From positions 1-64,000 of the IMG/VR virus record IMGVR_UViG_3300025065_000001: a stretch of DNA of 64,000 bases; one strand, given 5' to 3'. The DNA is from a virus. Both the position numbers and the translations under genes were made by a program. Under the pieces are notes generated by a model. The model ran no database searches, was not told where the DNA came from, and was given only the letters and a program-made list of their open reading frames with translations. This document shows, piece by piece, positions 14,616 through 47,506 of this stretch. The number at the start of each line of letters is the position of its first letter. The stretch's first letter is position 1.

Positions 14616-14633
14616 CAATTTGGGAAATTGACG

Positions 14634-16094: not shown

Positions 16095-16169
16095 GGTTAA
16101 TTTTTAATCGGGCTTGGCAACGCGATTGAAAAGCCCTAAGATAATCGAAAATTTGGATGGAAATTGACG

Positions 16170-17336
16170 ATGGCTAAACGGCTAACCCTCACTGAGCGTA
16201 TCAAATCGCTTATCACCGCAGCCGCGGGTGATGAAATAGACTTTTCGCAGATTGCAGCGTATGAGAGCGTTGCGGCATCTACTCGTCCAATCAATCAACC
16301 AAGCACAGCCTACCATGGCGCACAAATGACAGAAGGCTTTCTGTCACAGATGGCGGCGTATTACAAAGAAGAAAGTGTCCCTATTCAGGTCATGCACAAT
16401 GGCCAGATGCTCCCTGTAGGTAAGGTGTTTGCCGCAGATACTTATAGCGCCGATGAAGGGCACACGGACTTAAACGTTCTTTTCTATGTCGATGCTGAAG
16501 GCCCTTACGCCAGAGATATTGACCTTTCTATTCTAGATGAGGTTTCTGTCGGGGCAGCTCCCAATCACGCGTACTGTTCTGAATGTGGTTTCGACTACAT
16601 GGCCGAAGGCAACGAAATTAGTTTCTGGTTTCGTGAATGTGATAACGGCCATCGAATCGGTGAGAACGGAACCCACCTTCGCTTAACCGACCTCCGTGCT
16701 TGGAAAGAATTATCACTCGTGAACAAAGGCGCGAGTAATAAACCGAAGATACTTGGCTCTGCCAAGCAACGTCTGGGCAAAGACGCATATAACCAGCTTG
16801 CCGCTTCAAGTTCTCCTGAAGCCGTACAGTTCAGTTATATGACTTGCTCCCCCACTCAAAGTGAAACAACAGGTGAAACTATGGATTTATCAGCATTAAC
16901 AAACCAAGTTTCTACGTTGTCCGCAGCTAACGGCAAGCTAGAAGTTAAACTCGAATCGGCAGAGGCAGCGCTTACCGCTTCTCAGTCGGAAGTTGCCGCG
17001 CTGAAAGGACAAGTAGAAGAACTAAATACGAAGATTGAAAACGGTTCTGAAACCAAACTTCAATCTGATCTTTCAGCCGCTCAAGCGCAACTTGAAACGG
17101 CGAATAAAATTGTCGGCGTGTTCGATGAACAAGTTAAGCTTGCCGCAAAAATGGCGGGTTTGACGTTGGCTGAAGACGCCAGCGCGGACGACAAAATTGA
17201 GCTGTTAAAACAAGCTCAAATTAAACTGGCAGCAATCCCAAGGGATGGTGTTGGCAAAGGTGCGGATACACCGGTAGCTGACGACGTTCTGGTGCTTACT
17301 GCCGCGCATAACAGTGCGTTTGTTTCTAATCGATAA
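16170..17336 (+). CDS. prohead protease/scaffold protein
   Basis: H..PVGKVF, EVSVG, KELSLV protease-like motifs plus C-terminal coiled coil. Confidence 0.7.
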   Translation: MAKRLTLTERIKSLITAAAGDEIDFSQIAAYESVAASTRPINQPSTAYHGAQMTEGFLSQMAAYYKEESVPIQVMHNGQMLPVGKVFAADTYSADEGHTDLNVLFYVDAEGPYARDIDLSILDEVSVGAAPNHAYCSECGFDYMAEGNEISFWFRECDNGHRIGENGTHLRLTDLRAWKELSLVNKGASNKPKILGSAKQRLGKDAYNQLAASSSPEAVQFSYMTCSPTQSETTGETMDLSALTNQVSTLSAANGKLEVKLESAEAALTASQSEVAALKGQVEELNTKIENGSETKLQSDLSAAQAQLETANKIVGVFDEQVKLAAKMAGLTLAEDASADDKIELLKQAQIKLAAIPRDGVGKGADTPVADDVLVLTAAHNSAFVSNR

Positions 17337-17740: not shown

Positions 17741-17782
17741 TTCGGAAGATTCAAACCGCAAATAAAAATTTGGAGATTGACG

Positions 17783-18988
17783 ATGCAAGCAGCAAATCTT
17801 AGTCAGATTAAACGCGCCCCACTTAACGTGGTTTTAGCGGGTATTAATAGTGAGCACAGCGACGAATCTATTCGCGCTGGCGTAAAGCTGGTACAAGCAG
17901 CAAAACAATACGGTATTAACGTTCGTGATTACCTAAACCTAGCAGTTGACGTTCGTGCGTCGAATGATGAAAAGGCTGGTAAAAACTTCCGTTTGGATAA
18001 CGGTAACTTTATGACCGGCTACCAAGCCGCTATCGTAGAGTTGAACCTTCCGTTCAAAAACGCTTTTGAGCAAGGCATTACCCTTCAAGCTGCAGCGGAT
18101 ACTTTCAGTGCACGCCCAGGCTCTCGCGCACTTTTCCCAGAAGTTATCGATGATATGCTTCAGTGGAATACGCGCCAAGATATGTTCGAATCAACGGCCC
18201 CTATGGTGGCGCAAACCCGAACTATCACTGGTAATGAACTTATTACCACCGCAATTTTTGACGACCAAGGCCAGCTAAATACTTCGCCTATCGCGGAACT
18301 TGCGAACATTCCGATGCAGACTATCAAAAGCTCTGATAAGTCGGTTAAGTTCTTCAAACATGGTTCTGGTATCCGTACCTCATACGAATTCGAACGTCGT
18401 GTGAGCTTAGATATTCTTACCCCATATGCTGCCCGTATAGCGCGTAACAAAGAAATCAGCAAAGTGAAGATGGCTACCTCGCTATTGATCAATGGTGATG
18501 GTGTTCACGAAGCTGCAGAAGTGGTTCCAGCTTCTAATTATAAAGATTGGGATGCGGCTAAAGGCCTTAAAGGTAACTATGTTGCCTTAGCGGACTTCTT
18601 GGCGCAACGTGCGCGTAAAGGCGTACCGGTTGATACTATCGTAGGTAACTACGATATGTGGCTAGAACTGTTCCTAATGTTCTTACCAACTCAACCTAAC
18701 GGTAAGTCTACCTCTGAAATTCTTCAGGAGAACGGTGGTCCTCGCGTGGCTCTGGCCATGGACTTCTTAAGCGGTGTCAACTTCCATATTTCAAGCTCAG
18801 CCCCTACGGGTAAGCTGATTTGTTATTCGAAGGCTGACACGCTGGAAGAACTTATCGAAGCCGGTTCTGTACTGTCTGAGTCTGAGACAGCAATCAAGAA
18901 CCAGTCGATTACTTACGTGAAAACTGAGAACTCAGGCTATCGCCTAGTTTACGGTGATACTCGCGTAATCTTCGATACCACGGCCTAA
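17783..18988 (+). CDS. major capsid protein
   Basis: About 401 aa, synteny, HK97-like segment IAELANIP..KFFKHGSGIRTSYE. Confidence 0.8.
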   Translation: MQAANLSQIKRAPLNVVLAGINSEHSDESIRAGVKLVQAAKQYGINVRDYLNLAVDVRASNDEKAGKNFRLDNGNFMTGYQAAIVELNLPFKNAFEQGITLQAAADTFSARPGSRALFPEVIDDMLQWNTRQDMFESTAPMVAQTRTITGNELITTAIFDDQGQLNTSPIAELANIPMQTIKSSDKSVKFFKHGSGIRTSYEFERRVSLDILTPYAARIARNKEISKVKMATSLLINGDGVHEAAEVVPASNYKDWDAAKGLKGNYVALADFLAQRARKGVPVDTIVGNYDMWLELFLMFLPTQPNGKSTSEILQENGGPRVALAMDFLSGVNFHISSSAPTGKLICYSKADTLEELIEAGSVLSESETAIKNQSITYVKTENSGYRLVYGDTRVIFDTTA

Positions 18989-22327: not shown

Positions 22328-22382
22328 GTTTCATCCTCCTTCAGCAAGGTATCAATAATAACCTAAAATTTGGAGATTGACG

Positions 22383-23213
22383 ATGGCTGGTGAAGCTAAA
22401 ACAACTGATTTTATGTTGGGTACTGCCACTGTAATGATTGGTAACCCAGAAGACCTCTACAAACTAAACCCAGAACAACATTCTGTGGGCCTAGTTAAGA
22501 ATTTCACAATCGAAGCAACCAAGGAACGTTCTGACCTTACCCAAGGCCGAACTAACGATGTTGTTTTCACACTAACAACCGGTGCCACGACTCGAGGCAC
22601 ATTCGAAATGTATGAATACACCGAAAAGAACCTTGCTTACGCGTTAGGTCTAGACGGTGGGGAGTTGGTATCTCCTGAAGGTGATGCTCACGTAGTTAAG
22701 ACTTCTGCTTCTTTCTCAGCCGGTTCGGTTACTCTAGCTCTCAATGATGGTACAGGACAGGATATTGAGGTAGGTAGTTGGGTTAGTGTTCGCGACCCTA
22801 TTTCAGAAAATATTGTTTTAGGTACCGTAAAAACTACTTCAGGACTAACGGATGGTACAGCAGCAACCGCTACTATCGAAGTAGAAGTCCCTGACAGCAC
22901 TATGGCTTGGGAAGTTCCGGCTGGCGCATATGTATCCCTAGTAACGGTACTTGATGTGGGCTCAACGGATGTTGACCGAGACTTTGCCGCTAAGGTTCAA
23001 GGCCAGCTAGCTAACGGTAAGTGGATCACACTTCTTATTCCTAAGATGCGTGTTTCTTCAGGTCTTACTATGGCATTTGGTACCGACAACTTCGGTAATA
23101 CACCGTTTGAGTTTACGCCACTTAAAGTTACACCTTCCGATACTTACTATGCACCTTTCAAAGGTACCTCTGGTAAGTTAGTTCATGACTCAGTACAAAG
23201 CGCATTGTCGTAA
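22383..23213 (+). CDS. major tail (tube) protein
   Basis: Synteny before chaperones and tape measure; followed by terminator. Confidence 0.75.
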   Translation: MAGEAKTTDFMLGTATVMIGNPEDLYKLNPEQHSVGLVKNFTIEATKERSDLTQGRTNDVVFTLTTGATTRGTFEMYEYTEKNLAYALGLDGGELVSPEGDAHVVKTSASFSAGSVTLALNDGTGQDIEVGSWVSVRDPISENIVLGTVKTTSGLTDGTAATATIEVEVPDSTMAWEVPAGAYVSLVTVLDVGSTDVDRDFAAKVQGQLANGKWITLLIPKMRVSSGLTMAFGTDNFGNTPFEFTPLKVTPSDTYYAPFKGTSGKLVHDSVQSALS

Positions 23214-23263: not shown

Positions 23264-23276
23264 AAGGAAATTGACG

Positions 23277-23624
23277 ATGAGTGATAACCCTCCTGTAACC
23301 TTTACTATCAGCGTTAACGACGAAGATAAAGAAGTTTTCATGAGTTTTGCGCTACTCAATACCATCACAGGGTATTTTAGAACTGCGGATGAACTCGAAC
23401 AAATCTTACTAAATCCAGACGTTCGGGCGAGTGTCATTACTGAACTCCTATCTGAAAGAAATGAGACGGGCCGAATAACCCAGAATTTCGATATTAATAC
23501 AATGAAGGCAGACCCAGACCAAATACTGGACTTGCTGGAATGGGTATCGGAGCACGTTGAGACTTTTTTTATGAAGGCTCTACAAAGAGCCAAGCAACGA
23601 ATGAAGAAGAAGCAGACCACTTAG
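23277..23624 (+). CDS. tail assembly chaperone (gpG-like)
   Basis: Position; slippery T TTT TTT at 23564-23570. Confidence 0.75.
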   Translation: MSDNPPVTFTISVNDEDKEVFMSFALLNTITGYFRTADELEQILLNPDVRASVITELLSERNETGRITQNFDINTMKADPDQILDLLEWVSEHVETFFMKALQRAKQRMKKKQTT

Positions 23625-23935: not shown

Positions 23936-23954
23936 CAATTAGGGGAAATTGACG

Positions 23955-26900
23955 ATGGCCGGCAGCACTGCATCCAATACAATTAGAAATACCTTACTTA
24001 ATTTTACCGTCGATCCTAAATCCAAAAAGGTAATCGAGGAACTAACTCGCGAGTTTGAAAAGCTAGAGCGGGTCACACAAGCCGCGAGTCAACAACTTCA
24101 AGCCAACATTAAGGCCATTAAGGACACCCCACAGGGGCGCTCTGAACTCGCCCAGAACGCTAAGAATGAAGTTAACACCCAACGCAAAATCTTAAGTGAG
24201 AACCAAAAGAATGCGCGTGCGTTACTAGATCAAATTGCCTTAACCCTTGGGAAGGGACTTAACCCTCAACAGCAACAGCAGTTAGTGAAAGGTTTGAATC
24301 AAGCCTTTGGGGAAATTACAGGTCGCTTCACTAAACAGGCGCAAGCGCAAGCCAAGAAACAAGCAAAGGACCTTGCTGATTATTACGATCTTCAATTTCG
24401 TAAAAACCCCACCGTCCCAAAAGGTAGCCAGCTCTATAAATCTAGAGTAAACGCGTTAAACGAAAGTGAATTGCGCACAGGTATTCAAAGGCAAAAGCTT
24501 TTACGTAGTGGAGCCCAAAGTGCGCTTAACGATGCTATTCGTCTGGGGGATGTTAGCCTTGAGAAGAAAGCTCAAAGTGCACTTAAGAAACTTGAATCGG
24601 GTTTAGTCGCTGCAGAAGCACGACTAAAGAAGTTTACCGAGGCTTCTAAAAAAGCAGAAGTAGCACAAGACACCCAAGCTAGAACCGTAAGACGAACCCT
24701 TAAATCCTACAATGATGATGAGTTTCGATTAAACCCTACCGTAGCTAAAGGGCAAAAGGTTAAAGCGTCTCAAATCTCTACGTTGAACAGAACTCAACTA
24801 GAGGACGCTATTGCTCGGAATAAAGTTTACGAGAATGCTGCCCGTAAAGCGTTGAAGTCCAGTCTGGCGCCGGAGACGAGAAATAAAACGCTAGAGAATA
24901 ACGCGGGTAAAGCGCTAAGAGAGCTTGAAGAATCAACCAAGCTTGCCAAAGCACGTTTAAAAGAATTCGCTGATGCTGCGGCCGAGGCCAAACGCGCTGA
25001 AAAAGCCGCACAGAAAGCCCAGCGACCTTCGACACAAGTGACCGAACAACAGCGTGTAGCTCGTCGTATTGAACAGATTAGACAATCTCAAACCAATCAG
25101 CGCTTAGATGGCGGAGCCCAGCTATTCAGAAACCAAGGGCAATTACTTCGTAACTACGCTGTGATGGGCGCCGGTGTTGGTGGCCTTGCAACGTCCGCGA
25201 CTTTCTCAACAGAGTTAGATAGACAGTTCAAACAACTACAATCCATTGTGAACCTCACCAATGAGGAAATGGAAGAGCTATCTAAAAACCTTATTGATGT
25301 TTCGGAGAAAACTAAGTTTACAGCCACGGACGTAGCGGATGCGGCCATAACGCTTGGTCAGGCTGGCTTAGGTCAAAATGATATCCAAAATGCGATAGAG
25401 GGCGTTACGCTCTTTGCTACAGCGGTAGGTTCGGACTTAAAAAGTGCCGTTGACCTAGCCACATCAACATTAGGGGTATTTAATAAAGACAGTTCGCAGA
25501 TGACCAACATCGTAGACAAAATGACTACGGCTGTGAACAGCTCCAAATTGAACCTAGATAAACTCGCCTTAGGTCTTCAGTACTCGGGTAACTTAGCGGC
25601 CCAGTCGAATGTGACTTTTGAAGAAACGGTCTCCGCACTTGGCGCAATGGCTAACTCGGGTATCCGAGCGGGTTCGACACTTGGTACCGGCCTTCGACAA
25701 ATTATTATATCCCTGCAGAAACCGTCAGAGTCTTTTACCGAGATTGTACACAACCTCGGGCTCTCAATGTCTGACCTAGATATTACGACTCACGGTTTAA
25801 TACCGGTAATGAAAACACTGGCCGAGAGTGGCTTTACTGTCCGTGATGCTATGGAAAGTATGGAAGTACGTGCAGCATCCGCATACGGAGCGTTTGCAAA
25901 CAACATTAGCGTAGCGGAAGACTTAAGCGAACAAATGCGTATTGGGGGTTCTGCGGCCCGTGCGAACGACACGCAGATGGAAGCCTTAGCTAACCAGCTA
26001 GACCGTTTAGGCTCTATCAGTAAATCGATTGTATATGAGTCAATGGAGCCACTACTAGACACTATTACCAAGCTTACTGAAAAGACCGCTGACTTTCTTT
26101 CAGTGGTAAGAGACCTCGGGCCAATTTTAAGCGCTTTAGCAGTACCAGCTTCCATACTAGGGGGCGTACTGGCCACAAGAAGCGTTCTTCGTCTGGGAGC
26201 GGGGTTACTTGGCGGCGTCGATATGCTAACCGGAGGAAAAGGTAAAGGTAGCACAATCTCTAGGCTTGCTAAGGTTGCCACTGGTAGAGGATTAGGTACG
26301 GCTGCGGGGTTCGCCGCTCGTGCAATACCTGGGGTTGGGCTTGCTACTGCCGTAGGTACCGCAGGGGTTTATGGGTACCAGTACCTCGATGGCCGAGCCC
26401 GAGCTAATGATCGTGTTGATAGTACGCAAGCGGCCTTAAACCGTGGTACCTCTGAAACTAAGGTTTATGAAGACCAGCTTAAGAAAGTTGGGTCGGCTAT
26501 CGATACGCTTATCTTAAAGCAAAATGACCTTACAAATAACGAGTCCCTTCAGCGCGAGATACGTCGTCTTAACGATGAGTTTCGTCAGCAAGGGTTGTAC
26601 ATCGATGATTCGATAGACAGCTACGACAAGCTTATTACCAAGATGAAGGAGTTTGAGGACGCTACTCGTGATGGGGTGGGGTACCTTCAAACCCAAAACC
26701 GAAATAACTTTGTTGATAACTCTGAGGCTAAATTAAATGAGCTGTTTTCAATCGGCTTTTTCGATTCATCTGAGCGCAGACTATTAGCCCAAGAGAAGGG
26801 AACGGATGTTAGCGTTGGTAGCGGTAAAACCGCGACCCAACGAGGCCGCTTTGCCAGCCGAGGAAATGTTTATAGAAGTCTGATAGATACCGCGCTGCCG

Positions 26901-29276
26901 AATTTCGGGGATGATCTTGCGAGTATCAACGAGCTTATCCGCAACATTAACCCCCAAGAGGCCGGTGCTTATGGTCGTGCACAAGAGGCACGCACGCAAA
27001 CACAAGCATTGCAAAGCCAGTTATTCAATATCCTAAACCAATCCCCGCAAGAACTAGATTCTCTCATGGCGCAATTTGGCTTATCGGGTGATGCACGGGA
27101 TAAAGCCGAAGAGTATATAAACAACCTTGCTCAAGAAATGCTTAACCGAGCGAACACGTTACTGGAAGTGGAGAACAACCAGAAACAATACGATTCGTTA
27201 GACCCGAGTATCAAAGAGGAAGAGCGAAAGATTGCCCAAGTGGTAATTAAAAACCGTCGCGAACTGTTGAATGATATCGCTGAGACCAGCGAGGAAATCA
27301 ATGCGTTAACAGAGAAAAACAAAGACTACGAGACCAGTGACTACTTAGGCACATTCAAGGACATAAACACACTGGTTCGTGATCAGATAAAAGCCTTGCT
27401 CGAAGATGAGAAAGAGGCCATTGCGGAATTGGAAGCGCAAGGGGTTTCTAACCCTAGACTTGTGCTTCAAGAGCAAGGTTATTACCAAGCTGCAGGGGAA
27501 GCGAGAGGTAAGCTTGAGCGCTCTCTACAATCGGCTGCGAAAGATGCAAGGCCGGATGCTAATTTATATTACCCCGCACGACTGGCTGAGTTAGATAAAG
27601 AGCTGGATGTACTGCGTGATCAACTTCGCCAAGTTACAGACCGAGAAACTTCAGATGAAATAAAAACTAAGCTCAAAGAGCTTAATCTCGAGCGAGAACG
27701 TGTGGCCAATGAGCAAGATACGCTTTTCGCGGCCATTGATGGTAACTCTCCTGTTTCTGTTGCCCAGCGAGACAGAGAGCTCAATGCTCGGGTTACCTTG
27801 GGCAACCAAGAATTCGATACGATACAAGCCAAGACTTTTGCCCGTAGTCGTTTAGAACGTTCCATTGGTCAACAACAAGACCTAGACGTCCGCGATTTTA
27901 AATTGCTTGGGGATGATGATGAGTTATCGCGCCTCTTAACGGATGTTATCGGAACCGAGCGCGGTGAGATAAACAATGCCTTGGCCAAAGCACGACAAGA
28001 AGCTGAAAAACTTCGAACCCAAGCGGAAGATACCCGCTATGAGGCCCAGCGCTATATTGATATCTCAAACAACGAAGGTTACACCGACGAAACCCGAGAG
28101 CGTGCTGCGGGTATTGCTAATGATATTGAGAGCCAAGCAGTACAACTTGAGAAAGAGGCTATCGCTTTAGAAGAACAAGCCGTTCGACAAGCGAAAGAAG
28201 CCTTAACTGAGTTTGCTAATTATCTGCAAGAAACCATTATTGATAACCCCGCGCTAACGGATGGCCGCTCAAAAGCTAAAACAAGGAAGTCAGTTGAAGA
28301 TCTTGAGACACAAAATATTGGGTTGGACGCTAATCTCGAAGACCTGTCACAAGCCTCTAAGGAAGCGGATAGAGGCCTACGTGAATTTAGAGACCAGATG
28401 GGAGACACGATACGCAAGATAAATCAGAGTATTTATGAAAGCGACCAATTCCGTAGAACCCAAGCCGCGATTTATGGCACTAAATATTCACCTCTAGGGG
28501 AGCAAGGTGTTGATGAAACCTACGGTGGGCAGGGAGGCAAAGGTGTAGCTTCTCAGTTCGCAAACGCTGGCTCTTATATCGTTGATGAAGTCAATAATAG
28601 TTACGAAAACTTTGACGTCTTGACCCAAATGACCTTAGAAGCTACGGACGCGGCCAAAGGTTTAGGGGATGCGTTTGGTGCAACGTTCGCGGATATTATA
28701 ACGGGTGCGGCGGAGGGAGAGGACGCCTTTAGAGCCTTAGGTGCGACTGTACTGACGGAAATGGCCAATATCGCGACCCGCGCTCTCGCCAACCAAATGA
28801 TCTCGTCAATATTCTCTGGTCTAGGCCTAATGGGTGGCGGCGGAGGTTTAGGTAGTTTATTCGGTGGAGCCGGAGCGATGTTTACCGGCGGCCCAGTAAT
28901 AGCCGGTAGCTATAAGACTGGGGGATTAATTACCAGTGGAATGTCTACTCGAGATTCAACCTACGCCAAAGTAAGCAGAGGGGAATTTGTATTACGTAAA
29001 GCTGCGGTAGATGCCCTGGGTTTAGAGACAGTTAAGGCTTTAAATTCTGCCGACCCCAGCAGCGTTTCAGATAAAGAAATGATGACAAGTAGCGCAGCCC
29101 AGTCTATGTCTACAACAAACAGTAAAGATTCAGGAACCGTAAACGTTTATGTAGTAAGCGAGAAACAGTTACCTCCGATGGGGCCAAATGACGTAAAAGC
29201 AGTAATTGGAGACGATATCGCCCGAGACGGTGAACTTGCTTCACTAATCGCATCTGTAGCAATGAGGACTAAGTAA
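23955..29276 (+). CDS. tail tape measure protein
   Basis: About 1773 aa, coiled coil, TP901-like TMP core (FTATDVADAAITLGQAG..GIRAGSTLGTGLR), C-terminal GEFVLRKAAV. Confidence 0.92.
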   Translation: MAGSTASNTIRNTLLNFTVDPKSKKVIEELTREFEKLERVTQAASQQLQANIKAIKDTPQGRSELAQNAKNEVNTQRKILSENQKNARALLDQIALTLGKGLNPQQQQQLVKGLNQAFGEITGRFTKQAQAQAKKQAKDLADYYDLQFRKNPTVPKGSQLYKSRVNALNESELRTGIQRQKLLRSGAQSALNDAIRLGDVSLEKKAQSALKKLESGLVAAEARLKKFTEASKKAEVAQDTQARTVRRTLKSYNDDEFRLNPTVAKGQKVKASQISTLNRTQLEDAIARNKVYENAARKALKSSLAPETRNKTLENNAGKALRELEESTKLAKARLKEFADAAAEAKRAEKAAQKAQRPSTQVTEQQRVARRIEQIRQSQTNQRLDGGAQLFRNQGQLLRNYAVMGAGVGGLATSATFSTELDRQFKQLQSIVNLTNEEMEELSKNLIDVSEKTKFTATDVADAAITLGQAGLGQNDIQNAIEGVTLFATAVGSDLKSAVDLATSTLGVFNKDSSQMTNIVDKMTTAVNSSKLNLDKLALGLQYSGNLAAQSNVTFEETVSALGAMANSGIRAGSTLGTGLRQIIISLQKPSESFTEIVHNLGLSMSDLDITTHGLIPVMKTLAESGFTVRDAMESMEVRAASAYGAFANNISVAEDLSEQMRIGGSAARANDTQMEALANQLDRLGSISKSIVYESMEPLLDTITKLTEKTADFLSVVRDLGPILSALAVPASILGGVLATRSVLRLGAGLLGGVDMLTGGKGKGSTISRLAKVATGRGLGTAAGFAARAIPGVGLATAVGTAGVYGYQYLDGRARANDRVDSTQAALNRGTSETKVYEDQLKKVGSAIDTLILKQNDLTNNESLQREIRRLNDEFRQQGLYIDDSIDSYDKLITKMKEFEDATRDGVGYLQTQNRNNFVDNSEAKLNELFSIGFFDSSERRLLAQEKGTDVSVGSGKTATQRGRFASRGNVYRSLIDTALPNFGDDLASINELIRNINPQEAGAYGRAQEARTQTQALQSQLFNILNQSPQELDSLMAQFGLSGDARDKAEEYINNLAQEMLNRANTLLEVENNQKQYDSLDPSIKEEERKIAQVVIKNRRELLNDIAETSEEINALTEKNKDYETSDYLGTFKDINTLVRDQIKALLEDEKEAIAELEAQGVSNPRLVLQEQGYYQAAGEARGKLERSLQSAAKDARPDANLYYPARLAELDKELDVLRDQLRQVTDRETSDEIKTKLKELNLERERVANEQDTLFAAIDGNSPVSVAQRDRELNARVTLGNQEFDTIQAKTFARSRLERSIGQQQDLDVRDFKLLGDDDELSRLLTDVIGTERGEINNALAKARQEAEKLRTQAEDTRYEAQRYIDISNNEGYTDETRERAAGIANDIESQAVQLEKEAIALEEQAVRQAKEALTEFANYLQETIIDNPALTDGRSKAKTRKSVEDLETQNIGLDANLEDLSQASKEADRGLREFRDQMGDTIRKINQSIYESDQFRRTQAAIYGTKYSPLGEQGVDETYGGQGGKGVASQFANAGSYIVDEVNNSYENFDVLTQMTLEATDAAKGLGDAFGATFADIITGAAEGEDAFRALGATVLTEMANIATRALANQMISSIFSGLGLMGGGGGLGSLFGGAGAMFTGGPVIAGSYKTGGLITSGMSTRDSTYAKVSRGEFVLRKAAVDALGLETVKALNSADPSSVSDKEMMTSSAAQSMSTTNSKDSGTVNVYVVSEKQLPPMGPNDVKAVIGDDIARDGELASLIASVAMRTK

Positions 29277-29662
29277 TGTCGTTGGAACAATTTAATTTTA
29301 TTTACCATAAGGTCTCTCACCGCTATAGGGACCGGTCAACTAAACTCTCATTAGGTAATCAATGGGATTATGTAACTAAACCTACAGCGCCCGTTAGTCG
29401 GATATTCACACTTAAATATTCAGTAATGAAATATTTTGAAAATCCCCAGCTTCTAGGGCCAAAGGAAAGACGTTATAGTGCAGATCATTTGGATGAGTTT
29501 TACCAACGTCACGAAACATGGAAAGAATTCCTTTTCCAACATCATAAGTTTGGTAATGTTGTTGTTCGATTTGACCAAGCGCTAGAGTTACCAGAAGGGA
29601 TTACTGGCGGAGACGGGGCGATAGAACCCTTTACGGTAGTGTTGCGTGAGGTAGCACTTTAA
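29276..29662 (+). CDS. minor tail/distal tail protein (lambda M-like)
   Basis: Directly after TMP, 128 aa. Confidence 0.6.
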   Translation: MSLEQFNFIYHKVSHRYRDRSTKLSLGNQWDYVTKPTAPVSRIFTLKYSVMKYFENPQLLGPKERRYSADHLDEFYQRHETWKEFLFQHHKFGNVVVRFDQALELPEGITGGDGAIEPFTVVLREVAL

Positions 29663-29699
29663 TTAATAAAATATTTATTAATTAATTTAAACAATATTA

Positions 29700-29728
29700 T
29701 TGACAATAAAATTGTGTGTCCGTAATAT
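29700..29728 (+). promoter_or_regulatory. sigma70 promoter of candidate sRNA
   Basis: TTGACA (29700-29705), 17 bp, TAATAT (29723-29728), AT-rich UP-like region upstream. Confidence 0.8.
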
Positions 29729-29734
29729 TGACCT

Positions 29735-29813
29735 CGGTTAGTAGTCCAAGTGGCTCCTAATTATCGTCAATTTCCAAATCAACGCCTCAGCCTTGCTGGG
29801 GTGTTCTGTTTTT
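29735..29813 (+). ncRNA. candidate trans-acting antisense sRNA (~80 nt) complementary to the phage-wide translation-initiation box
   Basis: Promoter upstream; seed TTATCGTCAATTTCCAAAT (29761-29779); terminator stem with G-U pairs valid only on + strand, then CTGTTTTT. Confidence 0.75.
29781..29813 (+). terminator. intrinsic terminator of candidate sRNA
   Basis: AACGCCTCAGC-CTT-GCTGGGGTGTT followed by CTGTTTTT. Confidence 0.7.
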
Positions 29814-29882
29814 GGGCGTTTGAAAAATATTCAATCTATTCCTCTTTTCGGTATACTAAGCGAAAATTGAGGGAAATTGACG

Positions 29883-30371
29883 ATGAAAGAACTTTCACAA
29901 GAAATTCAGTCTCAACGGCATTCGCTGACCCCTGAAGACTTAACCACCTATCTAGAACTCATTATCGAAGACCCTGATGGTCAGCCGGTTATCATTCGTC
30001 TTACGGATAGAGAAACCCGTGAGTGGAAAGGTACCACATGGGTGCATTCTCCTTTTAAAGTGACTGGGGTTGGAAACAAATCCAGCGGTGAGAAAAATCG
30101 TCCTAGTTTATCCCTCCCCAATGAAGGGGGGCTTTATAGTTACTACTTGAACCAAGGTCTTTTAGAGGACTCCGTGGTAACCCGTTATAAAGCTCTCCCG
30201 CATGAGAAGGGGGGAACCCTCACTTCCAAACACGTATTTTATGTTTCACATGCCAGTAATATCAGTGCCTCTATCCTAACTCTTCAGTTGCGAAGGCTTT
30301 CTGACGGTAACAAAACAAAATTCCCACCCCGCAGATATGTGCAGCCAGAGTTTAGAACGGTAATCGTATGA
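29883..30371 (+). CDS. minor tail protein (lambda L-like)
   Basis: RPSLSLPN, synteny in M-L-K-I-J order. Confidence 0.65.
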   Translation: MKELSQEIQSQRHSLTPEDLTTYLELIIEDPDGQPVIIRLTDRETREWKGTTWVHSPFKVTGVGNKSSGEKNRPSLSLPNEGGLYSYYLNQGLLEDSVVTRYKALPHEKGGTLTSKHVFYVSHASNISASILTLQLRRLSDGNKTKFPPRRYVQPEFRTVIV

Positions 30372-30865
30372 TCAAAGAATTAAATACCTTTTGCGGCCAT
30401 GTGTATGAACAAGGCATTCAGGATTGTTATACCTTGGTTCGCGATTTCTACAAGGTCCGTTACCAGATGGACCTTACTAATTACGCTAGACCTAACAACT
30501 GGATTCTCGACCCTAATTTAGATTTCTTTACCAACCTATTCCAGCGTGAAGGTTTTGAAGATACCAATAATTGCCCTCACAAAGTTAGGTTCGGCGATGT
30601 ATTGATGATGCGAATTGTTGGAAGTGAAGTCGTAAACCACGTAGCAATTTATGTTGGCCGACAGAAAATACTTCACCACTTACAAGGCCGCGTAAGCGAA
30701 ATCGTTGACTATGACGATAAATGGCGTTTCCGTGTGGTTCGTGTTGTAAGACACCCAGAAATTGAGAAAACGACGGATGCTGTAGCCCTTCACAATCTGC
30801 ATAAAGGTTTACCCATTCACCTACGTGCAAAATTACGGAGTGCGAATAGTGAAAAAGTTGAGTAA
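30368..30865 (+). CDS. NlpC/P60 tail-tip protein (lambda K C-terminal-like)
   Basis: DCYTLVRDFY...NHVAIYVG...ILHH. Confidence 0.85.
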   Translation: MIKELNTFCGHVYEQGIQDCYTLVRDFYKVRYQMDLTNYARPNNWILDPNLDFFTNLFQREGFEDTNNCPHKVRFGDVLMMRIVGSEVVNHVAIYVGRQKILHHLQGRVSEIVDYDDKWRFRVVRVVRHPEIEKTTDAVALHNLHKGLPIHLRAKLRSANSEKVE

Positions 30866-31184
30866 TTTGTGGAATGACACGGCTGAGCGCTGTGGCTTTA
30901 TTCTTAAGTCCGGTGAAATTGTTGAGGTAGATAATATTGCCGAGGACCCTAAGAATGAATTTGAGGTCTCCGAGGCAGACTTTGAAAAGTATTATGCCAA
31001 TGCCGTAGCGTCTTGGCATTCTCATACGGATGATTTCTCCAATCTAAGTTTATCTGATTATTATACATTCCTGTCTCTACCGGAGTGGGATCATTGGATA
31101 GTGTCTAAATACAAATCGGTAAAATTCTCCGTGAAATCCGAATGTGTAATTTTAGAAGAGGTAGTACCCCATGGTGACGATTAA
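30849..31184 (+). CDS. JAB/Mov34 tail-tip protein (lambda K N-terminal-like)
   Basis: ERCGFIL...WHSHT....LSLSD. Confidence 0.8.
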   Translation: MKKLSNLWNDTAERCGFILKSGEIVEVDNIAEDPKNEFEVSEADFEKYYANAVASWHSHTDDFSNLSLSDYYTFLSLPEWDHWIVSKYKSVKFSVKSECVILEEVVPHGDD

Positions 31185-31935: not shown

Positions 31936-31967
31936 AATCTGGCTAAATTGACGATATTGGGGCTTCC

Positions 31968-34900
31968 GTGACGCATAACACGTTCAAGGGCCGCGGAGGG
32001 GGTAGTGGACCCTCGAATGACGCGGACAACCTATTTTCTACAGACGCATTTGAGTTTGTCCTTGGGATATCCGAAGGGCCGATAGGCGGCGTTGTGGGAG
32101 ATACCCCCGAAGAAAAGCTTCGCAATATCTTTATCGACGACACCCCAGTCTTTAACAGCCTCAATCAAACAAACTTTGATAACGCCAGCTTAATGCTGCG
32201 TTTCGAGCAAGGTACCTTAATTTCAGCTAAGGACGACCCCGAAGAAGGGCAGACCCCTATTTGGTTTGGTCTGGGTGGCCAGAACGTCATTCAGCAAGTG
32301 TCGGCAAACCTAGCATATCAGGCTCCAATAACTAGAGTTACTGTACCCACTGTAGCGGGATTTGACGAAATTGAATTGCGGTTCACCGTGTCTCAGTTAG
32401 TCAAATATACGGATGATGGCTCTAAAAGGCATAGTGCGAATTTCAGAATCCAATACAAGAACCTATTGGATGATAACTGGAATACAAAAACTATGACCAT
32501 TTCAGGTAAAACCACGGTTAGTCCTTTTGTGAAAGTTCACAATATACGGATGGCCAGAACCAAGCCTGAAGACCAGTTTGAAATTAAAGTTACTCGTCTT
32601 ACTGAAGATTCTAATGAGGAAGAAGTAGCGGCGATATCTTGGACCAGTTATGAACTACTTACCAAATCTGGGGATGCCTACACCGACAATGGGGTTGAAT
32701 ATAGCGACCCCGATTTAGAGTACCACCCTGGACTTGCGATGATGCACGTTGTGGGTGTTCTCGGCCAGCAGCTCACCAGTATCCCTAACGTAAGCGCGAA
32801 TTACGATGGTATTAAGTGTTCAGTTCCTTCGAACTATGACCCAAAGACTAAAACCTATGAAGAAAGCTCAGCATGGGATGGGCAATTTAAAGCTGAAAAG
32901 TCTACTACGGATAATCCTTTTTGGATTGCACACGAGCTGGTTACTAATCCAGTGTGGGGTATTGTCAAAGCCAATCCACGGGTAAAGATAAATCGCTATA
33001 ACGTCTATCGAATGGCGAAATATGCGGACGGTTATGACCTTCAAACCAACGAAAAGAACTTAACTAATCCGATTACAGGTCAGGAGAAAGCCCCGCGCTA
33101 CGCCTTCAATGCCGTATTAACTGAGCCTCAAAATGGTTGGGACGTTCTTCGTTATGTTTTAGGTAGTGCTTTCGCTAGGCCTATTGAAGAAGACTCGGGC
33201 GAAATAAAGTTTATCGCGGATTTGCCGGATCTTCCTGTTGCGTGGGTTACTCCTGAAATGTGCGTGGCCGAGACCGATGGCTCCCCGTTTTCTTATAATT
33301 TCTCTGCCTTATCTGAGCGTCACAATGCGGTGACTTCCAGTTATATCGACGCATCTTTGGACTACCAACAACAGTACGTTGCTGAGATACGTGATGAAGA
33401 CTCCATTCTAAAATACGGGCTAAACACACATGAGTTTGATGCTAAAGGCGCGACTGATGTGTGGGAAGTGAAACGACGAATGACGTTTTACATATCATCC
33501 GTAACGACTGAAGTTAGAACGGTTTCGTTCTCTGCCCCTCAACTGGGGATGGAGTTTGAACCGATGGATATTATTAACATCGTAGATCCTGAAACAGGCC
33601 ATGCCTATTCTGGTAGGGCTGTGAAGTTAGAGAGCAAGGCTGTCACACTTCGAGACCCTGTGTATTTTGATGAAGGCGGCACCTATAACGTAAAAGTTAT
33701 GGGTAAGTACGAGAATTTTGACTTCACTATCGATGTGCTGTCTTCGGATGTTGGCCGACCTATTTACCGGCTAAAACTAAAACAGCCAATGCCAGAGCTT
33801 ACACTTTTTAATAAGTATGCACCGGTTGTTGTTTCGGCATCTAAGAATGGTCAGCTTATAGGTCTACCTAAGCCTTGGCGCATCATAAGTGTTACTGAAA
33901 ACGACAGCGTACCCGAGCTCTACGATTTCTTTTGTCAGGAAGTAAACCTAAACAAGCATGGTGACGCTGACAACCTAATTATTTCTGAAGCTCCTAAATA
34001 CTCGTTTCTTCTGAGACCACAAGTTCGCAAGGTTAAGAACCTTCGCGTTTTGGATGAAGAGCATATTCAGGTTCGTGGAGTAGAGCAGATAAACCTTTGG
34101 ATTGGTTGGGAGCTAGAGGCCCCTTTACCGCCAGGGGGTTATTTTGAAGTTCGTATTACAGAACAATCGGTTAATGGCCGAGAGTACACCACGAAAACCA
34201 ACAACCTTTATTTCGAGATTCAGAACGTAAAATTAGGCGATATCCAAATTGAGGTACGTAGTGCCCAAGGGGACAACGCTAGTCCATGGACCGTTCTGCA
34301 ATGGTCTACAACTATGGTATCCGCTGAAGATTTGAGAGACGCGGGTATCACCCCAGAAATCACTATTCGCTATGAGAACTATGCCCTAACTATTGATAGT
34401 AAAGTAATGTTTGACTTTGGCTCTACAGAAGTTAACCGCGTTAACTTACTTGAGACAAATGGTGTGTTGGGTATTCAGTTTAAGATATACGACGATGTGG
34501 ACCCAGATAACCGCGTACACCTTTTGACCAAGACCGCAAAGTCTTCGCTAATTATCCCTAAAAGCGAGTTCGAGGTTGCTGTTGAAGGTAAGGAACTGCC
34601 TTCTGATTTATATATTACAGCACGCGTTGTGGATCTTGTCGGAGGCTTTTACCCCGACCTATTCCAAAGCCCTCTAGCATTCCAAGTAAGTAACCCCGCG
34701 CAAGAGATAACGAACTTAAGCTATCAATACGTTTTCTCTGATGAAGACCCGCATTTGGTAACGTGGGATGATAACAACTATGGGTATGAAATCACGCTTT
34801 ATAAGCCGGATGGCCAGAGCGAGATTTCTAGTTACAAGATATATGACAGTAGCCAAGTATTCGGGTTCTTACGAGCAGCCGAAGGTTATGTCGTAAAAGT

Positions 34901-36530
34901 TAAGGGTTTTACTAATACACTTAGCTACGGCAAGCCTAAGACGATAACGTTCACGGTTACCGCACCACCAACCCCACCAGAAGAACCTACTATCACTAAC
35001 GAAGGCGGCATTATCACGCTTACGCCTCCGAAAGTTGATAAGACTTCTAGTTACTATGAGTTCAAATACCATAGCGAGAATGTGATCACGGAAGCGACGG
35101 ACTACTCGAACGGAAGTACGATCACTCTTTATTCCTCTGCAGAAGGTCAAGTCTTCCATATTTGGTACCGCTTAGCCTCTAAAGAAGGTTTTGGCGCATG
35201 GGTACGTAAAGAGATTACGGCAACAGAAGCCTTCCAAGTAGACCTTGGGAGTGTTGTAAATGAGGTGCTTAACTACGAGGGCCCAGATTGGGGTAAATCC
35301 CTAAGCGACAGCATCACACAGATGCTTGCGGATATGACTATCTGGGATGAGAGAACCACAGCGTTAGGTGATACCTATGAGAACCTAATCCTAACTCAGT
35401 CAAGTCTTGACGATGCCAATAAGATTAACTCCCTCGATATTATGGCGCTAAGGGGTAAGGTCGGAGATAAAACCGTTCAGACCCAAATTGTCGAAAATAA
35501 TATCGTCCAGATTGGCTATGAAGATGATGAAGGTAATTGGGTCATGGGTGCACCATTGGCCCGTGCTTTCACTGAGCTAAAAATCAAAAATCTAGATGGT
35601 GATTCCGTCTCGGTAGTCAGCTACATGCAAGCGTTAGAAAACGCTATGGGTAACCTAGAAGCAACCTTTACCCTCGGTGTAGTTGATGAAGAACAAACGT
35701 TTACAGGTTTAGAGATTACAGGGGGCAGCGGGGTCAGCGCGATTAAGCTTTATATGGATAACCTAACGTTCGCCAATAAAGCCGGAAAAGACTTTTTTAC
35801 CTACGACTCTGCTTCTCAGAAGCTCGTAATGACTGCGGATGTTGAGGTTAGAGGAACGTTAGTTTCAACCCGAAAAATTACGGTTACACCAAATGTTATG
35901 GAGATTGAAGACCCTAATGGCTTTGGTCCAGATAATCTTTGGATATGGAAAGGTACCCCAATTCTCAACGGTTCTGACCCTAATTACAGTGCCCTTACAA
36001 AACAGAACGCATCCCTAGGCTGGCGAGACCTTAACGGTAACGAATATTTCGGTGGTTCTGTGACTACCGGCCAGTTGATAAATGGGGGGGATAGTACCTT
36101 ATTGTCTCTCAACCCTTCGGTTGAAGTCGGTCCATTTACTACTAATGGTAACCCTAAATTGGTGAGCTGTAGCTTAAACTGGCGCGGGACTTACTCATGG
36201 GACGAAGCGTGCCCAACTAATCAAGGGTTTGTTCCTGAAGCAACGATCATTTTAGAGCGTAGTTTAGGGGGTGGGGGGTGGTCAGAGCTTCAACGCCAAG
36301 TCTTGACAGGGACAGTCACATACCGCGAGTTTGATGATCCTGAACACGGCGTTACAACCTGTACCATGGCTGAAGTTTCTGGGGGCTCATTTACCTTCAC
36401 AGATACTAGCACCTCCCTTGCAACATTCACTTATAGGCTACGAGTGACAAACCAGCAGCGTGCATTACTACAACAATTTATAGACTTACAGCGTTTGAGT
36501 CTCGTTAGTGTAGAAGAGAGACCCGCCTAA
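31968..36530 (+). CDS. central tail fibre/host specificity protein (lambda J-like)
   Basis: ISEGPIGG, WDGQFK...TDNPFWI, FN3-like repeats, 1520 aa. Confidence 0.85.
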   Translation: MTHNTFKGRGGGSGPSNDADNLFSTDAFEFVLGISEGPIGGVVGDTPEEKLRNIFIDDTPVFNSLNQTNFDNASLMLRFEQGTLISAKDDPEEGQTPIWFGLGGQNVIQQVSANLAYQAPITRVTVPTVAGFDEIELRFTVSQLVKYTDDGSKRHSANFRIQYKNLLDDNWNTKTMTISGKTTVSPFVKVHNIRMARTKPEDQFEIKVTRLTEDSNEEEVAAISWTSYELLTKSGDAYTDNGVEYSDPDLEYHPGLAMMHVVGVLGQQLTSIPNVSANYDGIKCSVPSNYDPKTKTYEESSAWDGQFKAEKSTTDNPFWIAHELVTNPVWGIVKANPRVKINRYNVYRMAKYADGYDLQTNEKNLTNPITGQEKAPRYAFNAVLTEPQNGWDVLRYVLGSAFARPIEEDSGEIKFIADLPDLPVAWVTPEMCVAETDGSPFSYNFSALSERHNAVTSSYIDASLDYQQQYVAEIRDEDSILKYGLNTHEFDAKGATDVWEVKRRMTFYISSVTTEVRTVSFSAPQLGMEFEPMDIINIVDPETGHAYSGRAVKLESKAVTLRDPVYFDEGGTYNVKVMGKYENFDFTIDVLSSDVGRPIYRLKLKQPMPELTLFNKYAPVVVSASKNGQLIGLPKPWRIISVTENDSVPELYDFFCQEVNLNKHGDADNLIISEAPKYSFLLRPQVRKVKNLRVLDEEHIQVRGVEQINLWIGWELEAPLPPGGYFEVRITEQSVNGREYTTKTNNLYFEIQNVKLGDIQIEVRSAQGDNASPWTVLQWSTTMVSAEDLRDAGITPEITIRYENYALTIDSKVMFDFGSTEVNRVNLLETNGVLGIQFKIYDDVDPDNRVHLLTKTAKSSLIIPKSEFEVAVEGKELPSDLYITARVVDLVGGFYPDLFQSPLAFQVSNPAQEITNLSYQYVFSDEDPHLVTWDDNNYGYEITLYKPDGQSEISSYKIYDSSQVFGFLRAAEGYVVKVKGFTNTLSYGKPKTITFTVTAPPTPPEEPTITNEGGIITLTPPKVDKTSSYYEFKYHSENVITEATDYSNGSTITLYSSAEGQVFHIWYRLASKEGFGAWVRKEITATEAFQVDLGSVVNEVLNYEGPDWGKSLSDSITQMLADMTIWDERTTALGDTYENLILTQSSLDDANKINSLDIMALRGKVGDKTVQTQIVENNIVQIGYEDDEGNWVMGAPLARAFTELKIKNLDGDSVSVVSYMQALENAMGNLEATFTLGVVDEEQTFTGLEITGGSGVSAIKLYMDNLTFANKAGKDFFTYDSASQKLVMTADVEVRGTLVSTRKITVTPNVMEIEDPNGFGPDNLWIWKGTPILNGSDPNYSALTKQNASLGWRDLNGNEYFGGSVTTGQLINGGDSTLLSLNPSVEVGPFTTNGNPKLVSCSLNWRGTYSWDEACPTNQGFVPEATIILERSLGGGGWSELQRQVLTGTVTYREFDDPEHGVTTCTMAEVSGGSFTFTDTSTSLATFTYRLRVTNQQRALLQQFIDLQRLSLVSVEERPA

Positions 36531-43932: not shown

Positions 43933-44031
43933 TTACAATGGCCAAGGATGGCCATTGTTCATTTACAGTCTTGCTTAAGGGTAGTATGCTTGATTGAAAA
44001 TTAGGCTAATTGACGATACTTAGGCGGCAAG

Positions 44032-44424
44032 ATGGGCATACTCGATCCCTCTAAGCTCAATATAAAAGTTGAGCAAATCCCTACCGAAAGTGAAGTTATT
44101 AAAATCTTCAATGAACGACATAAACTTGTCGCTCTATTTATCTGTTCGCCTATGGCCGTTAAGAAAGGCCGATACACTTTTACTTCAGTGCTTCTAGACG
44201 TTAGTTATGAGGATAGTGTCTGCCAGATACTCAACTCATTTCTAGCTGCGGAAAAGAGTGGAGATTATCGCAAGTTCTTAAACTTCAAAACGCGGTCCTC
44301 CGATGTATCTTATTTTTCTATAAATACCCTTCGCTTAAAGCTCTCATACTTTGGCGTCTGGGTGCTAATTATCTTGAGTTCACTTGGTATTAATCTCGGT
44401 TTAATGAAGTATTTGGGGCACTAA
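44032..44424 (+). CDS. membrane protein in lysis region
   Basis: C-terminal TM helix; upstream box. Confidence 0.55.
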   Translation: MGILDPSKLNIKVEQIPTESEVIKIFNERHKLVALFICSPMAVKKGRYTFTSVLLDVSYEDSVCQILNSFLAAEKSGDYRKFLNFKTRSSDVSYFSINTLRLKLSYFGVWVLIILSSLGINLGLMKYLGH

Positions 44425-45446: not shown

Positions 45447-45465
45447 CGATAATTGGAGCTACAAC

Positions 45466-45810
45466 ATGAAAGCCGCATTAATACTTCTTTTTAGAAACTT
45501 TGGTGCCGCATTGCTGACACGACATATGGTTTTGTTGTTGTTAAGGCTAGCGGCAAAATTCACTGAAAACAAAATCGACGACAATGTTGTTGGTTTGATC
45601 GACGCAGGGTTTAAAAACGATATCAACTCAATGCAGTGGTATATTGAAGCGATATCTGACCAAATAGAAATCGAGCTGAGGAAAAGGCGAGAGGCTGAAG
45701 AAGCTGAGGCCGAGGCCAAGAGGAAGAAAGCTGAAGCTGAGAAACCTGTACCTAGACCTGATAACCCTGTCCCCGAACCTGAACCTCGAGAACCAACTAA
45801 ACAAAAGTAA
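45466..45810 (+). CDS. hypothetical lysis-region protein
   Basis: TENKIDDNVV motif, Pro-rich tail; box plus GGAG SD. Confidence 0.55.
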   Translation: MKAALILLFRNFGAALLTRHMVLLLLRLAAKFTENKIDDNVVGLIDAGFKNDINSMQWYIEAISDQIEIELRKRREAEEAEAEAKRKKAEAEKPVPRPDNPVPEPEPREPTKQK

Positions 45811-47481: not shown

Positions 47482-47506
47482 ATCGTCAATTTCCAAATTT
47501 TAAAAG

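Follow-up and report, generated by a model that had tools for sequence, protein, structure and literature searches.

The DNA analysed here (hereafter the window) is the first 64 kb of the 80,544-bp virus record IMGVR_UViG_3300025065_000001 in IMG/VR, a record that derives from marine metagenomes and carries 127-bp terminal repeats. The source virus is a temperate marine siphovirus. It encodes a large terminase of the gpA type, a lambda-like tail module (a tape measure gene at 23955-29276, a gene in the gpM position at 29276-29662, L/K/I-like genes from 29883, and a J-like tail gene at 31968-36530 with a GTG start), a tyrosine integrase (46031-47269, minus strand), a family A DNA polymerase, and a primase-helicase, and its relatives are recorded as proviruses. 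A gap of 220 nt separates the gpM-like from the gpL-like tail gene and holds a compact unit on the plus strand (29700-29815), which is, with high probability, a genuine gene for a small RNA (sRNA). The central segment of this sRNA is complementary to a short motif, here termed the box, that stands at the translation starts of genes across the phage genome, and it is this relation that is examined here.

The unit begins with a promoter at 29700-29728, composed of a -35 hexamer TTGACA (29700-29705), a 17-nt spacer, and a -10 hexamer TAATAT (29723-29728), which together match the consensus at 10 of 12 positions. The predicted transcript is about 80 nt long (29736-29815) and runs from GGUUAG to a U-tract. 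On the plus strand it folds with -25.2 kcal/mol (z -4.1) into a 5' hairpin of 10 pairs (29736-29762; GGUUAG.AGUC / GGCU.CUAAUU), which is paired in 6 of 6 distinct variants, a seed, or anti-box, AUCGUCAAUUUCCAAAU (29763-29779), and an intrinsic terminator with a stem of 11-12 bp, a loop, and a U-tract (29781-29815). The fold of the minus strand of the same unit is much weaker (-16.8 kcal/mol, z -1.9). The terminator, a candidate binding site for a ProQ/FinO-domain protein, has a stem at 29781-29805 with 11 pairs, G-T pairs included and 6 of them G-C, followed by CTGTTTTTGG. The seed is unpaired in both the minimum-energy and the centroid fold and forms the 3' part of GGCTCCTAATTATCGTCAATTTCCAAAT (29752-29779), whose last 17 bases are the exact reverse complement of ATTTGGAAATTGACGAT. 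An initial annotation of this DNA had placed a promoter, a terminator, and an antisense centre in this gap, and every one of these elements is present; its proposal that the 5' hairpin and the terminator leave the seed single-stranded agrees with the plus-strand fold.

The unit occurs in the same tail-gene gap in 11 IMG/VR records and in several metagenome contigs. In eight IMG/VR relatives, whose flanking proteins are 86-95% identical, the segment from GGTTAG to the U-tract is nearly invariant. Compared with L031, the most remote clade member, with an M protein of 65% identity, the sRNA retains 83% nucleotide identity, against 66% and 68% in the flanking M and L genes and 56% in the spacer of the promoter. 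Relatives preserve both hexamers (TTGACA, TTGACC, or TTGACT; TAGTAT, TAATCT, or TACTAT) with a rewritten spacer between them, and the distance from the -10 hexamer to GGTTAG is 7 nt in the variants read. All 22 base pairs of the sRNA are maintained in six distinct variants, with two compensatory and three one-sided changes; the terminator accounts for 12 pairs, 100% paired, two of which show compensatory changes (C-G to U-A, and C-G/U-A at the loop-closing pair). The changes in the 5' hairpin (U-G to C-G and G-C to G-U), together with invariant G.U pairs, are valid on the plus strand only. Several invariant G.U pairs of the sRNA would turn into A-C mismatches in a minus-strand transcript, in line with the claim of the initial annotation about those of the terminator. 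With its hexamers kept, its pairs restricted to one strand, and its conservation above that of its flanks, the locus supports the earlier reading of a separate small-RNA gene.

More divergent homologs were sought with a pattern search on the 5' hairpin, which returned the same 11 records only; a search on the 3' part of the sRNA added 14 loci, all of them in unrelated coding DNA. Among cultured phages, Pseudoalteromonas phage KB12-38 (MF098558.1) is the nearest, with a large terminase of 51% identity, and it too has such a unit, as described below. The M-L gap measures 44 nt in Xylophilus phage Lumi and is missing in Acinetobacter phage Mystique; because these two more distant relatives have no such slot, the unit looks like a moron-type insertion, and it carries its own promoter and terminator between late genes and is absent from both phages, as is characteristic of morons. 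Lumi and Mystique show no box, and no repeated 9-mer was found in the 40 kb of Mystique that was searched. Relatives that keep the boxes and lack the antisense copy, which the initial annotation would have taken as evidence against its proposal, were not encountered: the unit is kept in every box-bearing relative examined and follows the box consensus across 50% protein divergence.

The box, ATTTGGAAATTGACGAT(G), is the exact complement of the seed AUCGUCAAUUUCCAAAU, and the motif is 13-17 bases long. Allowing up to three mismatches, the 17-mer has 20 matches in the window where 0.36 are expected; allowing up to two, its 13-mer core has 36 matches where 1.6 are expected, a number reached in 0 of 100 shuffles. 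Across the whole record, 37 boxes stand directly at an ATG that opens an open reading frame (ORF) of at least 35 codons; all of them are on the strand of the gene, and the ATG deviates by only 0-2 nt from its usual place relative to the box. Boxed gene starts comprise 25 ATG-proximal and 4 set-back cases in the window and about 40 in the 80.5-kb genome, so that the initial estimate of approximately 33 genes was about right. The claim that only one copy lies against the local direction of transcription holds for exact and near-exact copies; this copy, at 29763-29779, is followed by ATA rather than ATG.

At these starts the box spans the sequence from a weak GGA Shine-Dalgarno (SD) element to the AUG, and the genes concerned belong to replication, recombination, packaging, head, tail, and the excision region. 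Of the roughly 94 ORFs that a crude ORF caller returned, about 40 are predicted to form, in their start region, a duplex with the seed of -18 kcal/mol or stronger. By the same crude calls, genes without a box mostly start a few bases after an upstream stop (median gap 3.5 nt, against 58 nt for boxed genes), and since their starts adjoin the preceding stop they are probably translationally coupled to boxed genes. No box was found at the start of the integrase gene or at that of a gene for an XRE-type helix-turn-helix (HTH) protein. A 14-nt match, AAAATTGACGATAAT, in codons 3-8 of this cI-like/XRE HTH gene is kept in the relatives G004 and G005 and absent from G001, and it was not counted as a target. 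Nor does the box qualify as a -35 element, there being no -10 element at the right distance, or as an extended SD, its pairing with the anti-SD being limited to GGA. About a dozen boxes are preceded by AATTAACTT(TT)AAAATTT, for example at 658-680, 4876-4900, and 5737-5760 (all minus strand), and those of KB12-38 often by CTAAAACTTGA. The element TTAACTTT resembles the 'epsilon' translational enhancer of T7 gene 10.

The strongest indication that seed and boxes belong together comes from their co-variation. In the lineage formed by L031, L037/G001, L038/G002, and L041, position A29769 of the seed is replaced by G. In G001, 13 of 28 orthologous boxes have changed from T to C at box position 7, the partner of the seed change, and box positions 5, 6, 8, 9, and 11 differ from those of the window phage in none of the orthologous boxes. 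Genomes with the G seed are mixed in this respect (12 C-boxes and 19 T-boxes in G001, 11 and 14 in G002), and those with the A seed have no C-boxes at all: none among the matches in G000, 0 of 75 in G003-G005, and no change to C in two sets of orthologous box pairs (0 of 32 and 0 of 31). As G pairs with both U and C and A with U only, this asymmetry is what RNA pairing predicts. The same rule would provide a neutral path of evolution, along which the seed mutates first and the boxes may follow.

A second and larger step separates the window phage from KB12-38, in which a box of the form GGATTGACAATATG is found at approximately 30 gene starts. Here, too, there is one reversed copy (13854); it is identical to the box consensus, lies in the same M-L gap, and is flanked on the tail-gene strand by TTGACT-17-TACTAT and a strong terminator. 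Relative to the window phage, the box has lost two A's and undergone a change from G to A, and the seed has lost two U's and changed from C to U. The commonest box variants in KB12-38 are C to U (6) and A to G (7), both of which would still pair as wobbles. The initial annotation had recommended looking for seed/box co-variation in related phages, and it is found both in the 13 boxes of G001 and in the re-matched seed and box of KB12-38, a 2-nt indel included. Moreover, the anti-box has the genome-wide consensus even where the box of the neighboring gene deviates from it (TGGAATTGACGAT in L030, GTGGATTGACTATG in KB12-38), and because it follows the consensus and not its neighbor, action in trans is favored over a purely local hairpin. 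Functional coupling of the seed to the start boxes thus appears probable and is well supported by the co-variation. The reversed box of KB12-38 keeps an ATG and opens a 10-codon frame opposite the sRNA strand (L093, 13825-13857, plus strand); such a mini-ORF was rejected as the product of the locus, as it is absent from the window phage, which has ATA.

The individual boxes are distributed over most of the window. On the minus strand, boxes at gene starts are located at 645-661 (an exact 17-mer), 1598-1610, 2709-2721, 3408-3420, 3701-3713, 6222-6234 (ATG directly after), 7118-7130, 51003-51015 (341 aa), 51800-51812 (a RecU-like gene), 56589-56601 (202 aa), and 61950-61962 (295 aa), and a further exact 17-mer at 47482-47498 belongs to an 82-aa gene upstream of the integrase, in the excisionase position. 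Variants on this strand include GGAGGTTGACGAT at the gene start at 3849-3861, both changes of which would pair as G.U; GGAAATTGACGAC at 4863-4875 and GGATTTTGACGAT at 5724-5736, each with the ATG 1 nt later; GGAAATTGATGAT at 7627-7639, where the change from C to U would pair as G.U; and GGAGATTGACGAT at the gene starts at 12720-12732 and 61051-61063. On the plus strand, boxes mark the starts of a 486-aa gene after the large terminase, in the portal position (14623-14635), a 388-aa head-region gene (16159-16171), a 401-aa head-region gene (17772-17784; GGAGATTGACGAT), a gene upstream of the tape measure gene (23266-23278), and the tape measure gene itself (23944-23956), each of which has changed from T to C in G001. 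The GGAGATTGACGAT box of a 276-aa gene (22372-22384, plus strand) retains its T in G001, where it would form a G.U pair with the G seed. At the start of the L-like minor tail gene (29883-30371) stands GGAAATTGACGATG (29872-29885, plus strand), which reads GGAAATCGACGATG in phages with the G seed.

A few boxes are set back 12-25 nt upstream of the start, before a normal SD, and in these cases complementarity continues past the box into the 5' part of the sRNA, so that the SD is covered. They comprise TAAAATTGACGAT, followed by AAGGAG (2040-2052, minus strand), where a duplex of -17.7 kcal/mol is predicted for the gene that begins at 2022; CTAAATTGACGAT, which precedes the GTG start of the J-like tail gene by 13 nt (31943-31955, plus strand; -22.1 kcal/mol with the seed region); a box upstream of gene 44032-44424 (44005-44017, plus strand; -21.4 kcal/mol), where the match continues to the complement of the sRNA 5' part; and ATTGACGATAATTGGAGC upstream of gene 45466-45810 (45438-45462, plus strand), which extends over the SD and agrees with the sRNA complement ATTGACGATAATTAGGAGC apart from one bulge.

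The phage also encodes a candidate chaperone for the sRNA. The ORF at 51827-52339 (minus strand; 168-170 aa) matches the ProQ/FinO domain PF04352 (E 7.5e-13; 48.9 bits against a curated cut-off of 27) and the N-terminal domain of Escherichia coli ProQ (5nb9; E 1.7e-6), and its leader has a degenerate box, GAATTGACGAG. The gene is located between those for a RecU-like resolvase and a Herpes_ori_bp-like helicase, and KB12-38 is annotated with the same neighborhood. It is kept in G001, G003, G004, G005, and KB12-38, in the record of which PFAM-ProQ is noted, and was not found in the incomplete G002; it thus co-occurs with the sRNA in KB12-38 and in all complete relatives. A search of the phage collection with the ProQ protein returned KB12-38 as the sole match, with none from Lumi or Mystique. 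FinO-domain proteins recognize intrinsic terminators with 3' tails and stabilize partner sRNAs (PMC9674577; PMC6744872), and by analogy we infer that the phage protein may bind the sRNA. A phage-encoded protein of this kind fits the FinO and RocC precedents that the initial annotation had named.

The closest of these precedents is found in Legionella pneumophila, in which the sRNA RocR, with the FinO-domain chaperone RocC, silences five competence mRNAs via a shared 5' sequence, and of which a plasmid-borne mimic, RocRp, is known; RocC binds the RocR terminator and stabilizes the RNA (PMC6744872; PMC7973641; PMC9674577). The phage sRNA resembles RocR in being a short, putatively trans-acting RNA with an intrinsic terminator and a target sequence shared by mRNA 5' regions, here with the FinO-domain protein encoded by the same element. 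As far as sequence can indicate, it combines a promoter and terminator of its own, a seed predicted to be accessible to many mRNA 5' regions, and a FinO-domain gene, as RocR/RocC-type systems do. It differs in that RocR addresses five host genes, whereas about 40 targets, roughly eightfold more, are predicted here among the genes of the phage itself, and in that the target motif is the translation start. Having no sequence or Rfam similarity to RocR, the phage sRNA is an analog and not a member of the RocR family.

A second non-coding unit of about 200 nt (9258-9462, minus strand), with a promoter TTGACC..TATACT and a strong terminator, contains a sense box (9388-9404) that is followed by ATAA. 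This box has no start codon and is the longest perfect match to the sRNA, with 19 complementary nucleotides. The unit is conserved in G003-G005 (fold z -2.5), among which indels of 1 and 2 nt exclude coding; it is absent from G001 and G002, and no homolog was noted in KB12-38. It is possibly a partner of the sRNA, a decoy, or a replication-control RNA. Iteron-like direct repeats (units GGTTCTTGGGT / TCTAGGGT / TCTCGGGT) lie at approximately 9150-9255 (minus strand), downstream of this unit and of the primase-helicase gene, and this repeat region is likely the replication origin. Because the unit adjoins the primase gene and these repeats and is absent from G001 and G002, it may instead serve replication. 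Comparison with Rfam 15, of the whole window at the gathering threshold and of both RNA loci at E<=1, gave nothing relevant, with no curated sRNA family matched.

Taken together, the reading that we favor, and hold with moderate confidence, is that of a RocR/RocC-like, trans-acting sRNA that, helped by a FinO-domain protein, blocks translation initiation throughout the phage genome. According to this model, an sRNA of about 80 nt is made from a self-contained gene that was inserted, moron-like, between the gpM-like and gpL-like genes, and its seed would pair in trans with the boxes of about 40 phage mRNAs. The phage ProQ/FinO-domain protein, situated on the sRNA terminator, would help pairing and stabilize the sRNA. 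Pairing from the GGA SD through the AUG would occlude the ribosome-binding site and block binding of the 30S subunit; translation of most lytic genes would then fall together, and genes without a box would follow by coupling. Expressed from a prophage, the sRNA could keep lytic genes silent below a threshold, block superinfecting relatives with matching boxes, or both. Since the promoter is a near-consensus sigma-70 promoter, the phage integrates, and its integrase gene has no box, prophage silencing or exclusion is the most likely use, and a role in lysogeny or superinfection immunity may be called plausible, if only tentatively.

Expression was considered in assembled contigs of four metatranscriptome runs, chosen with this stretch, that cover 29358-31073. 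The deepest of them (depth 3.5-11) lie at approximately 29751-30019; their neighbors reach a depth of 2-4, and the tape measure gene has no contig. This gives a weak hint of sRNA expression. A second promoter-like site of sigma-70 type, P2 (TTCAAT-16-TATACT; 29830-29857, plus strand), follows the sRNA terminator just upstream of the L-like tail gene; its hexamers and their spacing are kept in L030, L031, and close relatives, part of its spacer diverges, and the tail genes downstream may have a transcription start of their own.

A number of points weigh against the proposed repression by an sRNA. The contigs show neither strand, ends, nor level and may include DNA; they run through the sRNA terminator into the L-like gene, and contig starts at 29751/29752 are probably assembly breaks at an A/T polymorphism at 29749 and not a 5' end. 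The FinO-domain gene has replication genes as its neighbors and could be silent in a lysogen. The late genes share their strand with the sRNA gene, and their transcripts would carry the anti-box in cis. As late structural genes are boxed too, a simple lysogeny repressor must be overcome on induction; titration by an excess of boxed mRNAs, or by the sense-box RNA at 9258-9462, could conceivably achieve this, both being guesses. Lastly, only three seed/box types are available for the co-variation, and an unseen factor that reads the boxes, such as a protein, could in principle lie behind their concerted change.

Alternatively, the sRNA may be real and pair with the boxes, with an outcome other than plain lysogeny repression, such as the timing or balance of lytic genes, cleavage by RNase III or RNase E, stabilization or activation of mRNAs, or control of replication together with the sense-box RNA and the ProQ/FinO protein. 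The FinO-domain gene sits in the replication module, the 19-nt perfect target that lacks a start codon adjoins the primase gene and the iteron-like repeats, the sRNA shares the late strand and is closely followed by a second promoter, and proteins of the FinO family are known to control plasmid copy number via antisense RNAs (PMC8136791). We nonetheless regard such an outcome as unlikely: a duplex from the SD to the AUG is the classic geometry of an initiation block, a set of about 40 targets that spans every functional class does not fit a role in replication only, and the sense-box RNA is missing from G001 and G002, with no homolog noted in KB12-38, although these phages keep the sRNA and, bar the incomplete G002, the ProQ gene. 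It is harder still to reduce the locus to a cis element of the late operon, in which the anti-box would gate the box of the next gene (29872-29885) in read-through mRNA and the terminator and P2 would be mere punctuation. A boxed gene on the same strand does follow the anti-box at a distance of approximately 95 nt, contigs from RNA libraries bridge the terminator, and in L031 the neighboring box co-varies with the seed. A conserved near-consensus promoter of the unit's own, 7 nt before the hairpin, and an anti-box that in L030 and KB12-38 has the consensus of the genome and not the deviating sequence next to it make this very unlikely, and a cis element would leave the change of 13 dispersed boxes along with the seed unexplained.

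The boxes might also be DNA sites for a repressor or another protein, the reversed copy being one more site and the sRNA-like signals around it incidental. Stoperators of Cluster A mycobacteriophages are about 13 bp long, asymmetric, oriented with transcription, and present genome-wide (PMC3203893), and an altered protein specificity can drive a concerted change of many sites. Stoperators are bound as DNA by a repressor and are not tied in position to gene starts, whereas the boxes are fixed in register with the ATG, with 0-2 nt of variation, and vary mostly in ways compatible with wobble pairing; tolerance of T and C alike is confined to genomes with the G seed, and at set-back sites complementarity reaches beyond the box. 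A promoter, hairpins, and a terminator conserved around the reversed copy, with pairs valid on the plus strand only, and a candidate RNA chaperone encoded by the same phage likewise speak for an RNA, and a protein site is accordingly judged highly improbable. Finally, the reversed copy could be the relic of a decayed, inverted gene start beside an ordinary terminator between two tail genes, as might be suggested by the ATA that replaces ATG in the window and by the ATG and 10-codon frame of KB12-38. Such a relic is disfavored and has next to no probability in our estimation, as the mini-frame is not conserved and the unit is better conserved than the coding DNA on either side, occurs in all relatives with boxes, and tracks their consensus at 50% protein divergence.

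Several further observations concern the phage and its relatives. A DNA similarity search against phage records gave no nucleotide-level match for the window phage, no tRNA or tmRNA was found in a scan for such genes, and scanning of GTDB genome contigs by protein profile and by sRNA pattern produced no match and named no host. In the provirus G004, the 9-kb flank (L054, 615-9778) is another mobile or defence island, with a second integrase, a UvrD-like helicase, two reverse transcriptases, and a resolvase, and it indicates no host either. A Pseudoalteromonas-like host is inferred solely from the nearest cultured phage. The gene for the XRE-type HTH protein lies beyond the window, at 73084-73404 of the genome on the plus strand, opposite to the early genes, and likely encodes the phage repressor. 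A palindrome, ACACAAT-N3-ATTGTGT, occurs four times in the genome where about 0.3 are expected (window 9582-9598, 9638-9654, and 29701-29717; genome 72954-72970); one copy is in the divergent region adjoining the HTH gene, and one weak copy overlaps the -35 hexamer of the sRNA. An operator function is conceivable, as is that of a bidirectional terminator rich in AT; a repressor operator at the sRNA promoter was rejected, the copy there being weak and not kept in G004 and G005. KB12-38 (L093/L094) has a second repeat family of 9-mers such as GTAACGTTA and CGGGGTAAC, with approximately 16-20 copies each, which together look like the palindrome GGGGTAACGTTACCCC.

A motif of closely similar layout has been known since 2011 from Cluster K mycobacteriophages as start-associated sequences (SAS), the reader of which was left open as 'RNA or protein' (PMC3203893) and the function of which was still unknown in 2024-2025 (PMC11373665; PMC12699233). 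Like the box, SAS is an asymmetric motif of 13 bp that stands a few bases from many gene starts in the orientation of the gene, prefers ATG, and is conserved beyond the SD. In both cases a single reversed copy lies away from any gene start (29763-29779 here, 13854 in KB12-38, and 59870-59882 in phage Anaya). The two differ in that the SAS consensus GGGATAGGAGCCC is unrelated to the box GGAAATTGACGAT and its host is an actinobacterium, in that SAS is restricted to non-structural genes whereas boxes are also found at terminase-side, head, and tail genes, and in that reports on SAS describe neither an sRNA nor a FinO protein nor any co-variation of seed and box. Box and SAS are thus the same phenomenon in different families. 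In Anaya (JF704106, L099), the reversed SAS falls in the 385-nt non-coding gap (59682-60066) that separates gp96 from gp97; these flanking genes are co-directional, and the copy is on their sense strand. A sigma-70 scan around it found no clear promoter or terminator; the gap is a candidate site for an analogous RNA and may serve as a lead.

Antisense RNAs that confer immunity are well documented in other phages, among them P1/P7 c4, P4 CI, P22 sar/sas, and BTP1 STnc6030 (PMC12197685). Like the RNA proposed here, they are expressed from the prophage and either prevent translation by acting on a ribosome-binding site or keep out superinfecting relatives; unlike it, they have one or two targets each, are mostly encoded in cis or in the same operon, and none hits a motif of tens of genes. 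The Rfam C4 family gave no match, and the predicted targets of the phage sRNA are dispersed over the genome, which sets it apart from RNAs of the c4/CI type. FinP/FinO of F-like plasmids and FopA/Inc are likewise mobile-element systems in which an antisense RNA, partnered by a FinO-domain protein, masks a ribosome-binding site (PMC8136791); they differ in having a single cis-antisense target (traJ, repZ) and not a dispersed regulon addressed in trans. The initial annotation had supposed that no phage system of this scale has been described. This stands insofar as no phage sRNA matched to a genome-wide start motif was found, and the literature, including a 2025 review of phage sRNAs (PMC12197685) and with subscription journals mostly outside the search, yielded no phage RNA with so many targets in its own genome; it does not stand for the motif, since SAS with its one reversed copy had been reported in 2011.

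In P1/P7, differences in the seed define heteroimmunity (PMC12197685). Seed and boxes of the present phages could together constitute an immunity specificity that is encoded in RNA and subject to co-evolution in related temperate phages, a doubtful though conceivable extension of the model. The prophage sRNA and its FinO-domain helper would then shut down translation of incoming relatives with matching boxes. A change of U to C in a box would escape the A seed by a mismatch and go unnoticed by the G seed, and a switch by indel, as in KB12-38, would signal that a new specificity has arisen. By the same reasoning, start motifs that are accompanied by one reversed copy in other groups of phages, long unexplained, could be accounted for.

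The sRNA/box system is a known kind of regulation with an unusual reach. If the proposed pairing is correct, a temperate phage would be able to regulate about 40 of its own genes post-transcriptionally through one sRNA, and the biology of FinO/ProQ-domain proteins would extend to the control of phage life cycles. It would also supply a testable mechanism for SAS, reported in 2011. Direct testing is feasible, as KB12-38 and its host are cultured and natural compensatory variants of seed and box exist.

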